Source of the DNA: a virus
Lineage: Duplodnaviria > Heunggongvirae > Uroviricota > Caudoviricetes
Length of the DNA: 35,930 nucleotides
Strand: one strand, 5' to 3'
IMG/VR virus record: IMGVR_UViG_2671180986_000014
In this document: positions 1,196 to 16,666 of the stretch, piece by piece
Position numbering within the stretch: position 1 is the first letter of the stretch
How the letters are laid out: the number at the start of each line of letters is the position of its first letter
Position numbers and translations under genes: made by a program
Notes under the pieces: generated by a model
Databases searched by the model: none
What the model was told of the DNA's origin: nothing
The model's input: only the letters and a program-made list of their open reading frames with translations

Positions 1196-1228
1196 GAGTA
1201 AGCCCGCAACATTGCGGGCTTTGTCTTA
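1196..1228. terminator. GC-rich hairpin (gcccgc / gcgggc) with T-tract on the plus strand, immediately 3' of the methyltransferase stop
   Basis: inverted repeat 1202-1219 followed by tttgtctt; the U-tract is better on the plus strand than on the minus strand. Confidence 0.4.
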
Positions 1229-2017
1229 TGGTTCGATCGCCGTTTTGAGCCGTTGTGTTGCTACATCAAAATAATGATCACTGGTTTCTATACCAATAAA
1301 TTTGCGTCCTGCTTTCAGTGCTGCAACACCCGTTGTTCCCGATCCCATAAAAGGATCAAGGACTGTTCCACCACTATTCGCAGTTCTGACCAGTTCTGCC
1401 ATAAGTACTTCTGGTTTTCCGGTCGGGTGCATTTTCTTTGATGGGATAACCGGGAACGTCATGCAGCCGTCGAACGGTCCCGAAGGCGATTTACCTAAAT
1501 GGCCTTTACTGCCCCAGACGATGTATTCGCACTGATGCCGGAAATACCCCGTATGGGGTGTTCGTGACCCCCTTCCTTTGTTCCACGCAATGATGCCGCG
1601 CCATGTAAAGCCACTGGCCTGAAACGCATCGGTTAAAGCAGGCAGTTGTCGCCAGTCAGTAAATACCAGGGCATAACCACCCGGCCTGACTGCGCGGTGT
1701 GCCTGTGCCATCCATAATTGTGTCCAGTAAGCCCACGAACGGGCATCCATATTTTCACCCGCAAATCCATCAAAGCGGTGAAGGCTCTCGCTGTTCAGAT
1801 ATTTTGCGTGGCTGCCCTGGTTGGTGCGTCCGGCCTTGTGTGTCGCGCCCGAACTGTAAGGCGGGTCAGTGATTAAGGCATCAATACTTTCTGGCTCAAT
1901 CAGCGGCAATATTTCCAGTGCATTCCCACGACAGAGCGTGGCATTGTCAGTCTGATAAACCTTAGTGTGTTCCGGTGTATGTGCTGGTTGGTGCTGGATT
2001 GCGATCCCCACGGTCAT
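1226..2017 (-). CDS. DNA methyltransferase, beta-class N6-adenine/N4-cytosine type (DPPY motif N-terminal, FxGxG AdoMet motif C-terminal); prophage cargo
   Basis: 263-aa ORF; motifs ITDPPYS and DPFMGSGTTGVAA read directly; GAGGAG ribosome-binding site before ATG at 2015-2017. Confidence 0.85.
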   Translation of the reverse strand: MTVGIAIQHQPAHTPEHTKVYQTDNATLCRGNALEILPLIEPESIDALITDPPYSSGATHKAGRTNQGSHAKYLNSESLHRFDGFAGENMDARSWAYWTQLWMAQAHRAVRPGGYALVFTDWRQLPALTDAFQASGFTWRGIIAWNKGRGSRTPHTGYFRHQCEYIVWGSKGHLGKSPSGPFDGCMTFPVIPSKKMHPTGKPEVLMAELVRTANSGGTVLDPFMGSGTTGVAALKAGRKFIGIETSDHYFDVATQRLKTAIEP

Positions 2018-2159
2018 AGCTCCTCATGTGTGTGGGGGGCTCAATGGCTCTCGTTATCTGGTTAAGTGTTTTGCAGCGCGGACATTTTATTTCAATGTAG
2101 TGAAATGAGGCGCGGGCAAGTAGTTTGTTGCAATTTTTGCATCGTACATTTTGCGTCAT
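1962..2159 (-). CDS. Com-like zinc-finger protein (homolog of phage Mu Com translational activator); 3' end overlaps the methyltransferase start by 56 nt
   Basis: 65 aa from ATG at 2157-2159 (track start 2168 is GTG); RCKNCNKLL...HYIEIKCPRCK resembles Mu Com as recalled; AGAGGTG ribosome-binding site. Confidence 0.65.
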   Translation of the reverse strand: MTQNVRCKNCNKLLARASFHYIEIKCPRCKTLNQITRAIEPPTHMRSYDRGDRNPAPTSTYTGTH

Positions 2160-2203
2160 TTGCGGCACCTCTTGTGTGGTTACTGCTGCCGATATGATAG
2201 CAA

Positions 2204-2245
2204 ATCGATCGTTTTTATCGATCGGATTTATTGCATTGATCTATC
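2204..2245. promoter_or_regulatory. cluster of three GATC (Dam) sites within 35 bp, 48-82 bp upstream of the com-like start codon; candidate methylation-sensitive control region
   Basis: GATC at 2207-2210, 2220-2223, 2238-2241, embedded in an imperfect palindrome around atcgatcg. Confidence 0.35.
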
Positions 2246-2380: not shown

Positions 2381-2437
2381 GACGGGGAAGTTGACTTCCC
2401 CGTCGCGGTTCCTTACAGTGTAGACTTACACTGTAAG
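2381..2437. repeat. two adjacent perfect hairpins (9-bp arms 2381-2404; 11-bp arms 2412-2437) between ogr and the com promoter region
   Basis: gacggggaa/ttccccgtc and cttacagtgta/tacactgtaag read directly. Confidence 0.5.
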
Positions 2438-2750
2438 AATGCCGCAATTTCCGTGCCTGCAAACCTGAATCGCAACTCACAAGGTGATGTGTGGAGGATC
2501 CAGATTATCGCTACTGCGGTTAAACACAGTAGCAAGGTTTTTAACGGAATTTGCGTCATAGCGCTTGCTCCTTTGCTGGAGAGGCGCTAACCTTCTACTT
2601 GCTGAGGGTAGATGGTCAGGGCCTCGGGTTAACATTAAAGTTGACTCGGGGCCTTTCCACATCTGGCCTTCGGGTATTCCCTCCAGCCATCAGCCGAAAG
2701 GCACCCGCGCGTAATCTATCGCTTTTTTGTTACTCCGGCAATTCTGCCTG

Positions 2751-3011
2751 TTAATTCTGAGGGAAAGGCAAACTCATCTGATTGTTTCCCCTGTGTGAAG
2801 CTGGCAGCTCATGCCACGGGATACCTTCTGATGAGTGAACGCCGGAGGCGTGTTTCGATGTGAATTTATGGAAAGCTTCCAGTGTTGAGAAGCATACGCC
2901 GCATTCCAGGTTGTTACACTGGTAATACTTTTGCCGCACGGTGTTTGAATCATTTTCCGGACGACTGGTGCGGATACGGGCAGATGCGCCACAAAGCGGA
3001 CAACGGAACAT
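2751..3011 (-). CDS. ogr: Ogr/Delta-family zinc-finger late-gene transcriptional activator
   Basis: 86-aa ORF starting MFRCPLCG with a four-Cys arrangement like P2 Ogr; AGGGAGG ribosome-binding site; sits beside D as in P2. Confidence 0.85.
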   Translation of the reverse strand: MFRCPLCGASARIRTSRPENDSNTVRQKYYQCNNLECGVCFSTLEAFHKFTSKHASGVHSSEGIPWHELPASHRGNNQMSLPFPQN

Positions 3012-3053: not shown

Positions 3054-4267
3054 TCACTCTGTTTCCGCTATCCATTCCGGGATTTTTGCCTCAAGCTCAA
3101 GCTGTGTGGTAAAGCCGCTGTTATCAATGGTGTGCCCGGCTTTTGCAATAATCCAGTCCTGATTATCGATGTCACTTTTGAAGCCTGTCACCGTGCCATG
3201 CATTTCAGGGTAGAGTTCTGCACGTCCACGCGCCAGCGTGATGGAGAAGGATGCGGCTCCGCGTTGTANNNNNNNNNNNNNNNNNNNNNNNNNNNNNNNN
3301 NNNNNNNNNNNNNNNNNNNNNNNNNNNNNNNNNNNNNNNNNNNNNNNNNNNNNNNNNNNNNNNNNNNNNNNNNNNNNNNNNNNNNNNNNNNNNNNNNNNN
3401 NNNNNNNNNNNNNNNNNNNNNNNNNNNNNNNNNNNNNNNNNNNNNNNNNNNNNNNNNNNNNNNNNNNNNNNNNNNNNNNNNNNNNNNNNNNNNNNNNNNN
3501 NNNNNNNNNNNNNNNNNNNNNNNNNNNNNNNNNNNNNNNNNNNNNNNNNNNNNNNNNNNNNNNNNNNNNNNNNNNNNNNNNNNNNNNNNNNNNNNNNNNN
3601 NNNNNNNNNNNNNNNNNNNNNNNNNNNNNNNNNNNNNNNNNNNNNNNNNNNNNNNNNNNNNNNNNNNNNGCGCGTTCACGCCACCGCCTGGCATAATGAA
3701 TAACAGATTACCGCTTTTTACCGTGGTGACTGCGCCCAGCATTTCCGCCATGCGCGTAAGGAAGGACATGTCGCTTTCTTCAGTCTGGTCGGCGTGGTCG
3801 ATTTCGATATCCATCAGCATTTCGCTGATTTGCGGTTTCAGACCGTACCGGTGAGCGATGGCGGATACCACACGCTCAATGGTCACATCATGCCAGGACA
3901 CCTCACGTTTAACGTTAAATTCATCCCGAAAATCTGCGCTTCTGGCTGAAACAGTCAGCCTGTCCGGCGGTCCTTCGTGAGCGATTTCATCAACAATATA
4001 AGTGCCTTTTTCTGTCAGTGGTTCTCCTTTCCAGCCAATGAGAACCGTCAGGCGCGCGCCCCGTGGTGGTAGCTGCAACTGACCATCTGCATCATCCAGC
4101 GTGATGGTGAGCTGGTCCGCTTCAAATCCCCGGTTGTCGGTCAGTGACAGGCTCATCAGTCGCTCTGTCACGTCGGGCAGTGTTTCACCTTCCGCGAGAA
4201 TATCAAAATCCGGCATTTTCACGGGGTCTGGGCCCTGACTGAGCAATTGCATGGTGGTGTCGGTCAT
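3054..4267 (-). CDS. D: tail protein D (late control D family); interior masked by 401 N
   Basis: N-terminus from ATG 4265-4267 (AGGGAGG ribosome-binding site); true C-terminus found in a different frame from the track, ending ...PEWIAETE with TGA at 3054-3056. Confidence 0.8.
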
Positions 4268-4424
4268 CTGTTCCCTCCCTGTGCGGCATGGTCGCATGTG
4301 CGTGCGGAGGGGGTTACTGCTTTTTGTTGTCGCCGTGGCGGGAGAACGGCGCAGGGGTGAGATTACGCGCGTGGTGGGTGATGATTGTTGCCGAATCATT
4401 TAACGGATACAAGGGGCTGAAGCT

Positions 4425-16038: not shown

Positions 16039-16666
16039 CGCTTTCCCCCCACGTCACATCCTGGAATACATGCGACCAGTCGCCTTCGGAAGAGGGCAGG
16101 CGGGGTTTTGGCTCCGGCAGGTGTTCTGCCTGCGGTGTGCCCTGACTGCTGCGCGTGATGCGAACGCGTTCCCGCAGGGGGAGCGTAAACAGGAGATCGG
16201 CGCTGTCATCGTCATTGATAACGGCGGAAAATTTGATGTCCTGATTACGCTCCGGATTGAGCAACAACTGTGGCTGATTTTCGGATAACCACGCCAGCAG
16301 CGGCAGCGTGAGGTCGTCCAGCTCTCCGGCGTAATCCATGACAAACATCACTATCTGATAGCGGTAAACAAACGATGGGGTTTCTCCGGTCGTTTCAATG
16401 TTGNNNNNNNNNNNNNNNNNNNNNNNNNNNNNNNNNNNNNNNNNNNNNNNNNNNNNNNNNNNNNNNNNNNNNNNNNNNNNNNNNNNNNNNNNNNNNNNNN
16501 NNNNNNTGACAAACATCACTATCTGATAGCGGTAAACAAACGATGGGGTTTCTCCGGTCGTTTCAATGTTGCCGCTCTCCACGAAAATGGTGAATTTTTC
16601 CGGGTTGGCATGACACCACCGGCATGAACGGGTCATGGCTTCACGCAGGGAATCAGTTTTCAGCAT
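16031..16666 (-). CDS. R: tail completion protein R (ORF inflated by a 103-N run flanked by identical 65-bp copies)
   Basis: MLKTDSLR... N-terminus, AGGA ribosome-binding site; removing one copy plus the N run (168 nt) gives 155 aa. Confidence 0.8.
   Translation of the reverse strand: MLKTDSLREAMTRSCRWCHANPEKFTIFVESGNIETTGETPSFVYRYQIVMFVXXXXXXXXXXXXXXXXXXXXXXXXXXXXXXXXXXXNIETTGETPSFVYRYQIVMFVMDYAGELDDLTLPLLAWLSENQPQLLLNPERNQDIKFSAVINDDDSADLLFTLPLRERVRITRSSQGTPQAEHLPEPKPRLPSSEGDWSHVFQDVTWGESDG
16339..16403. repeat. 65-bp exact direct repeat, copy 1, abutting the N run 16404-16506
   Basis: identical to 16507-16571. Confidence 0.9.
16507..16571. repeat. 65-bp exact direct repeat, copy 2
   Basis: identical to 16339-16403. 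Confidence 0.9.

Follow-up and report, generated by a model that had tools for sequence, protein, structure and literature searches.

We analysed a 35,930-nucleotide (nt) stretch of viral DNA (IMG/VR record IMGVR_UViG_2671180986_000014; the whole stretch is called the window here), in which the right end of a P2-like prophage adjoins the host gene flk. Near this end, on the minus strand, a gene of the Com family (com) overlaps the 5′ end of a DNA methyltransferase gene. We conclude with moderate confidence that this cassette is a self-contained DNA-modification unit of the prophage, built on the front end of the phage Mu com-mom operon and gated by an OxyR-type operator, the Com protein, and a hairpin in the mRNA. 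In Mu, Dam and OxyR control the transcription of com-mom, and Com controls translation (PMC6483171, PMC3378877, PMC3299994). A preliminary description of the window had proposed that the same two-layer logic governs a methyltransferase here, and we confirmed each element it listed at the positions it gave. The sequence features point the same way: GATC sites with 18- and 13-bp spacing fall within an OxyR site matching 16 of 20 consensus positions, and the sole Com motif of the window stands 5′ of a predicted blocking hairpin. Comparing the Mu com-mom region base by base with the window, we found specific sequence counterparts of both control layers; the likeness to Mu is homology and not mere analogy.

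The com gene (1962-2159, minus strand) encodes a 65-amino acid (aa) four-Cys zinc ribbon protein, a predicted RNA-binding activator of methyltransferase translation. Performing the profile search that had been proposed for this Com-like zinc-finger reading frame, we obtained a match to Pfam Zn_ribbon_Com (PF10122) with an E-value of 5.2e-12 and 45.5 bits, above the cut-off of 22.9, which places the protein in the Com family. With Mu Com it shares 57% identity across 42 aa (BLASTP E 2e-14), and the cysteines of its zinc-binding CxxC...CxxC arrangement (C7, C10, C26, and C29) are invariant in the family alignment. A sequence search of Com against solved structures returned only chance-level zinc-ribbon matches. 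The start of com is ATG 2159, with a GAGG ribosome-binding site at 2171-2168, 8 nt upstream. GTG 2168, the start given by the ORF finder, falls inside this ribosome-binding site. RefSeq labels members of the family (e.g. L001, 2463-2660) 'Com family DNA-binding transcriptional regulator', which does not fit the one that has been characterised, a protein binding RNA and activating translation. This product name is misleading, since Com is an RNA-binding translational activator and not a DNA-binding transcription factor.

The methyltransferase gene (1226-2017, minus strand) encodes 263 aa if read from ATG 2017, or 261 aa from GTG 2011, which we consider the likelier start. In the profile search, the protein matched PF01555 (N6_N4_Mtase) with an E-value of 3.3e-32. 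Its DPPY motif lies at residue 51 and its FxGxG motif (FMGSG) at residue 223; because DPPY precedes FxGxG, the enzyme belongs to the beta class, as the preliminary description had stated. The best matches are N6-adenine enzymes of the M1.HpyAVI type (6.7e-21) and CcrM (1.5e-20), ahead of N4-cytosine enzymes (8e-14), and the nearest solved relatives are again N6-adenine enzymes, of the M1.HpyAVI/DpnA type and CcrM. From the DPPY motif and these closest relatives, the modified base is probably N6-adenine. The protein is 98.9% identical to the enzyme of phage Chuche and 41% identical to gp20 of Burkholderia phage KS5. It gave no match to the Mom family (PF25680) and matched methyltransferase families only; the Mom-type cargoes of related loci reach E 4e-77 with the same family. 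We rejected an identity with M.EcoGII, an enzyme of 349 aa carried by another prophage (PMC5778455). Our literature searches, whether by RefSeq protein accession or for an account of the P2-type cassette of E. coli or of the motif that the enzyme targets, found nothing.

Two in-frame codons compete for the methyltransferase start. ATG 2017 stands just 2 nt from the AGGAG ribosome-binding site, and GTG 2011 stands 8 nt from the same site. Furthermore, the cargo of every related locus starts with GUG-GGN and shares the N-terminus V-G-N-K/R-K. From the spacing and these shared starts, GUG 2011 and not AUG 2017 is the likely start. The choice affects the overlap with com, which the preliminary description had put at 56 nt. 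That figure holds for ATG 2017, but the likelier GTG 2011 gives 50 nt, equal to the overlap of com and mom in Mu.

For the comparison with relatives, we surveyed 80 viral contigs that encode Com homologues, together with 68 unique genome loci of other species. The first control layer is a predicted OxyR-type operator at 2208-2244, carrying three Dam sites. These GATC sites, at 2207-2210, 2220-2223, and 2238-2241, span 35 bp, as had been noted earlier, and lie 48-82 nt upstream of the com ATG; their spacing of 18 and 13 bp is identical to that of Mu mom. The triple alone is not significant against chance, because the pattern GATC-N5-25-GATC-N5-25-GATC occurs once in the window with 0.65 expected in shuffles. 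We therefore weigh the cluster by its Mu-equal spacing, its conservation in the diverged loci L029 and L038, and its independent match to OxyR, and not by chance statistics.

For the OxyR match, we scanned both strands of the whole window with the consensus ATAGnTnnnAnCTAT-N7-ATAGnTnnnAnCTAT (20 scored positions). Sites scoring at least 15/20 occurred only on the GATC cluster, the best of them (16/20) being that at 2208-2244, which is placed with respect to the first GATC as in Mu. In 30 Markov shuffles, no site scored as high as 15. On the same scale, the agn43 operator, a Dam-sensitive OxyR site, scores 14/20. The known operator of Mu scores 13/20; it, too, is treated as a Dam-sensitive OxyR site (PMC3378877). 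The cluster is also well kept among relatives. The three GATCs are intact in 30 of the 34 viral loci of the window type, in the diverged loci L029 and L038, and in the Salmonella locus L089. In L038, all 12 GATC bases and both spacings are retained, while 8 of the 23 spacer bases differ, and the same elements are likewise kept in L029 and Mu. The middle GATC is lost in L011. In L035-L037 (about 2440-2470), the GATC/OxyR cluster is precisely deleted, cataacaGATC...GATCgatttg having become cataacaAATCaatttg, and the −10 element, com, and the methyltransferase gene are retained.

A consensus scan placed a putative com promoter on the minus strand next to this operator, with an extended −10 element TGcTATCAT at 2194-2202, a weak −35 element TCGATA (2221-2216), and a predicted transcription start near 2187. 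At the same distance past the last GATC, TGnTATCAT is found in all sister loci, including the GATC-less variants, and TATACT in the related Mu-like loci. The operator would occupy about −57 to −21 of this promoter and overlap its core; OxyR would therefore act by occlusion. We rejected a second candidate, GTGACA-18-AATGAT (2272-2243), which would be agn43-like with the operator downstream of the start, as the main promoter, since sister loci such as L004 and L029 keep neither of its hexamers but do keep TGnTATCAT.

These observations raised the question of whether the GATC cluster is an inherited relic without regulatory effect, the expression of the cassette being set only by the promoter and the Com/hairpin lock. 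The expected chance number of 0.65, the clean deletion in L035-L037, the loss of the middle GATC in L011, and a cluster-to-promoter position unlike that of Mu would all fit such a relic. However, the GATC bases of L038 were kept in full among diverging spacers, and likewise those of L029 and Mu; the OxyR half-sites are better here than in Mu; and we saw multi-GATC clusters in no group besides Enterobacterales and Neptunomonas. We thus regard a relic as unlikely.

Alternatively, the operator may serve as a heritable ON/OFF switch of the agn43 or gtr type in the lysogen, so that a subpopulation of lysogens would express Com and the methyltransferase, and host methylation would be phase-variable instead of being gated to lytic growth. 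The promoter looks competent for sigma-70 without an activator, having an extended −10 element and neither a C nor an Ogr site that we could find; the operator overlies the core promoter in a repressor-like placement; and both its sequence and its spacing are near those of agn43 (18/13 here, 19/13 there). If this were true, a prophage methyltransferase would be switched by Dam/OxyR and not by simple-sequence repeats, a fraction of the lysogens would carry a different methylome, and the switch could reinforce itself, should the enzyme also methylate the GATC adenine. Yet the retained Com/hairpin lock points to tight silencing and not to stochastic expression, and in the Mu-like phages from which the module descends, it works during the lytic cycle. 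We consider a lysogenic switch quite unlikely, and it keeps that low probability because no Ogr box or C site ties the promoter to lytic growth.

The second control layer lies in the mRNA. The predicted Com-binding site (2036-2052, minus strand; GAGAGCCAUUGAGCCCC) includes CC(N)3GAG at 2047-2040. The bipartite Com motif derived by SELEX, GAGNNCC(N)3GAGNNCC (PMC6483171), occurs once in the window, exactly here (2052-2036, minus strand), with 0.03 occurrences expected. Its core is equally placed among relatives: of 70 unique genome loci, 69 have CC(N)2-3GAG at a distance of 94-137 nt from the start of com, compared to 15% of background segments. Of 64 unique sequences, 64, 62, 50, and 60 have a canonical pair at the four positions flanking the motif, where G-C, A-U, U-A, and C-G alternate, while slid controls reached at most 46 of 64. 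The small stem of the Com site thus covaries, with compensatory changes across these sequences.

Directly 3′ of the Com motif, we predict a hairpin that would block methyltransferase translation (2006-2037, minus strand), with an outer stem CCCCAC/GUGGGG and an inner stem CAUG/UAUG. It has a folding energy of −13.0 kcal/mol, makes up 77% of the ensemble, and has a z-score of −2.0. Folding of the mRNA around the methyltransferase start, a check proposed in the preliminary description, thereby yields a structure that covers the ribosome-binding site GAGGAG (2025-2020) and both candidate starts, AUG 2017 and GUG 2011; in Mu, a hairpin of the same layout blocks the translation of mom. The hairpin also appears in the 101-nt fold around the methyltransferase start. 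Such 101-nt folds are themselves uninformative (z −1.1 here and −0.5 in Mu), and the isolated hairpin alone stands out. The CCCAC...GUGGG stem is common to Mu (−9.5 kcal/mol) and all enterobacterial relatives, regardless of the cargo. An Rfam scan of the window at E 0.1 or below matched no family to the Com site and hairpin, and matched sok only. Taken as a unit, the Com-binding hairpin and the blocking hairpin (minus strand, 2006-2052, and the corresponding part of L004-L168) make up a conserved cis-regulatory RNA.

The arrangement of the two genes allows for translational coupling, in which ribosomes on com would unfold the hairpin and the Com protein would be irrelevant to methyltransferase translation. 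The com frame crosses both hairpin arms, the com stop lies 44-50 nt downstream of the two candidate methyltransferase starts, and overlapping genes are often coupled. But the translation of mom in Mu needs Com, which binds to its own site on the mRNA (PMC6483171, PMC3378877), and coupling alone does not account for a Com motif and stem that are conserved and covary across the family. It is therefore improbable that coupling replaces Com. That Com would instead be a DNA-binding transcription factor activating a methyltransferase promoter is favoured by the RefSeq annotation name only and is scarcely credible, since the founding Com binds RNA and acts on translation (PMC6483171), and the Com RNA motif lies in the transcript and not in the promoter.

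Relying on homology to Mu and on the sequence, we propose the following course of expression for the cassette as a modification unit gated by operator, Com, and hairpin. Transcription would begin at the extended −10 promoter TGcTATCAT (2202-2194). OxyR bound to unmethylated or hemimethylated GATCs would block RNA polymerase, and full Dam methylation would exclude OxyR. On the resulting bicistronic mRNA, com would be translated freely, and the ribosome-binding site and start of the methyltransferase would be locked in the hairpin. Com would then bind CC(N)3GAG just 5′ of the hairpin, open it, and permit initiation. The methyltransferase would be made only once enough Com had accumulated, presumably in lytic growth, and would methylate the progeny phage DNA against restriction by the next host. 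In the lysogen, the enzyme would stay silent, avoiding toxicity or the methylation-dependent nucleases of the host.

Several points weigh against this proposal. The loci L035-L037 keep intact com and methyltransferase genes without the GATC cluster, and the Dam layer is therefore dispensable. Looking for a P2 Ogr box (TGT-N12-ACA, which in Ogr-dependent late promoters is centred near −55) in 2160-2340, we found none; the nearest match, at 2067-2084, lies inside the com coding sequence. Upstream of com we found no C-type activator site, and the T6 run and the weak, C-dependent Mu promoter with its 19-bp spacer and poor −35 and −10 elements are missing as well; the stretch that in Mu extends from the C site to the −10 element is absent here. 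Compared with Mu, the operator has moved 27 bp nearer to com and lies over the putative promoter, whereas that of Mu lies upstream of the C-activator site. The preliminary description had seen the two-layer logic of Mu in this cassette; both layers have their counterparts here, but the promoter context differs. At the RNA level, the Com-site stem of the window has an A.C mismatch at its third pair and does not fold alone, and the stem of the blocking hairpin is invariant among enterobacterial loci and therefore without covariation support of its own. The toxicity of the methyltransferase is an assumption.

We also checked which enzymes stand behind com elsewhere. Among the 68 genome loci, the cargo was a D12 Dam-like methyltransferase (PF02086) in 44, a beta-class N6/N4 methyltransferase (PF01555) in eight, Mom (PF25680) in five, and a C5-cytosine methyltransferase (PF00145) in three; the remaining eight had no recognised cargo. 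Methyltransferases are thus the commoner cargo of com and Mom is the exception, so the wiring seen in the window is not unusual. The cassette itself is present, and annotated by RefSeq, in 149 of 5426 complete E. coli genomes (about 3%), and it is also found in phage Chuche.

The exchange of cargo leaves a defined border. In near-identical Mu-like backgrounds (L040 versus L053, around 2655-2670), Mom and a C5 methyltransferase are swapped, and the identity of the two loci stops within about 13 nt past the GUG. Likewise, a beta-class gene (L038) and a Mom gene (L068) begin with the same 15 nt. The end of identity just past the GUG and these shared 15 nt therefore place a recombination junction just inside the cargo ORF. 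Since cargoes are swapped at that junction, the front end is portable as a module, to which the first few codons of the cargo also belong. The Dam sites have a narrower distribution. In Enterobacterales (Salmonella, Citrobacter, and an Enterobacteriaceae genome), several GATCs are clustered upstream of com at intervals of 18 and/or 13 bp, and Neptunomonas has two GATCs upstream of com, 18-19 bp apart. Such clusters are absent upstream of com in the examined Acinetobacter, Halomonas, Methylophaga, Burkholderia, and Desulfovibrio loci. This distribution suggests that the Dam-dependent layer was added in some lineages only.

Two records of the survey deserve a separate remark. The draft genome of Methylophaga thiooxydans DMS010 (L094-L104, L130) contains at least 12 copies of com with a Dam-like methyltransferase gene, many of them about 440 nt from contig ends; this pattern suggests a transposable Mu-like prophage, present in multiple copies, at which the assembly is broken. 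A contig labelled Vagococcus sp. WN89Y, a Gram-positive bacterium (L090), carries an enterobacterial cassette (Com 91% and methyltransferase 89% identical), and contamination or mislabelling is likely.

Regarding the genomic setting, flk occupies 1-996 on the minus strand at the start of the window (NCBIfam flagella biosynthesis regulator Flk, E 4.7e-152). The minus-strand order is gene D (3188-4399), ogr (2751-3011; PF04606), hok/sok, a terminator, com, the methyltransferase gene, and the host junction. Phage Chuche, which was isolated and is viable, has the identical order D-ogr-hok-com-methyltransferase-att-int. From this shared order, the cassette is the occupant of a variable ogr/attP slot in a viable phage. 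The preliminary description had placed it in a cargo slot beside ogr; it does lie at the same end of the prophage, but 'beside' is approximate, as the hok/sok locus and the terminator intervene between ogr and com. The att/int end of the prophage is outside the window, so the att core is not defined.

The intervening hok/sok type I toxin-antitoxin locus (about 2413-2706, minus strand) consists of a Hok-like ORF and an Rfam sok match. The ORF, of 48 aa, lies at 2413-2559, and its relatives are annotated as Hok/Gef or MokW-like; the sok match (RF01794, 2554-2706) scores 55.7 bits, slightly below the gathering score of 59. An intrinsic terminator on the minus strand (2299-2326), with a 10-pair stem followed by a T run, would end the upstream hok transcript and insulate com from ogr/hok transcription. 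Between this terminator and the GATC cluster lies a near-perfect inverted repeat (2268-2291, GTCACCCTCA-N-TGAGGGCGAC), which many sister loci have and which is absent in L004 and L029. On the other side of the cassette, 4 nt past the methyltransferase stop, a terminator-like scan picked out a G+C-rich hairpin (1200-1221) at the prophage/host junction; we tentatively consider it a possible terminator, its minus-strand U-tract being poor. Farther into the prophage, masked bases (N) at about 3260-3700 break the gene D region, so gene D is not fully readable there, and a perfect 65-nt direct repeat is found at 16339-16403 and 16507-16571, 168 nt apart.

The pairing of Com with a methyltransferase is not new. 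It has appeared in the literature (PMC3299994, PMC3091744) and in public E. coli annotation, and the annotation of phage Chuche reads 'gpCom control of modification'. Searching the literature, we found no paper describing the conserved OxyR/Dam operator of the P2-type cassette. Current understanding is not overturned by these results, and the cassette is an ordinary member of a widespread kind of phage cassette. If regulated as we propose, it would be a silent, tightly gated methyltransferase in about 3% of complete E. coli genomes, with modest practical value. The enzyme could account for methylation that depends on induction and for the ability of P2-like phages to evade restriction. Of broader use is the view of the Mu front end as a portable module comprising the Dam/OxyR operator, com, the Com site, the hairpin, and the first cargo codons, with four unrelated modification enzymes found behind it. 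Such a module would be convenient as a natural model for the silencing of toxic modification genes.

Among known systems, the operator closely resembles the one that governs the phase variation of agn43 (flu) in E. coli by Dam and OxyR, which has three GATCs with 19/13-bp spacing in an OxyR site and a very similar local sequence, GATCaat...atcGATCg...atcGATCgat. In contrast to the window, the first GATC of agn43 falls on the annotated start of the IsrC transcript, so that the operator lies downstream of the start, the target is an autotransporter, and there is no Com layer.

The com-methyltransferase gene order itself recurs in Mu-like phages and prophages. A com homologue followed by an adenine methyltransferase in the mom position has been reported for FluMu, Pnm1, an island of Haemophilus aegyptius, and phage B3 (PMC3299994). 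The enzymes of the Hin1523 (FluMu), Nma1821 (Pnm1), and Hia5 type are nearly non-specific and silent in lysogens, and a Com-type regulation was proposed by the authors (PMC3299994). The loci of these enzymes (Hin1523, Nma1821, and Hia5), together with ORF47/48 of B3, share with the window a com homologue followed by a methyltransferase forming N6-methyladenine. They differ in that the Hin1523, Nma1821, and Hia5 enzymes align with Dam and M1.DpnII (Fig. 1 in PMC3299994) and reside in transposable phages. In our survey, the Haemophilus and B3-type cargoes matched D12 (PF02086) references, whose motif order is unrelated to that of the beta-class enzyme here.

Closer in host phage is the cassette of KS5, a P2-like phage of Burkholderia, whose annotation of 2010 lists an N4/N6 (PF01555) methylase and, overlapping it, a 'Com translational regulator' (PMC3091744). 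Phage AP3 has the same pair of Com and PF01555 methylase. KS5 (gp21/gp20) and AP3 agree with the window in being Peduoviridae phages, in the overlap of Com with a PF01555 methyltransferase (that of KS5 being 41% identical to the enzyme of the window), and in having, after a CC(N)3GAG motif, the segment CCUCC, which is complementary to the ribosome-binding site. On the other hand, their cassette sits between the tail-fibre assembly and tail-sheath genes and not at ogr/att, the overlap is 23 nt, no GATC lies upstream, and what the hairpin pairs with is the ribosome-binding site and not the start codon.

The closest counterpart of the control region is Mu com-mom. The window differs from it in its cargo, a PF01555 methyltransferase in place of Mom (PF25680), in belonging to a P2-like and not a transposable phage, and in an extra in-frame AUG 6 nt upstream of the GUG, besides the promoter context described above. 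Mu Com acts in trans. What the two systems have in common is the Com zinc ribbon, the three GATCs with equal spacing and register in an OxyR site, a CC(N)3GAG motif followed immediately by a hairpin with a CCCAC...GUGGG stem, in which the ribosome-binding site and a GUG start are enclosed, and, if this GUG is used here, the same length of overlap between com and its cargo.

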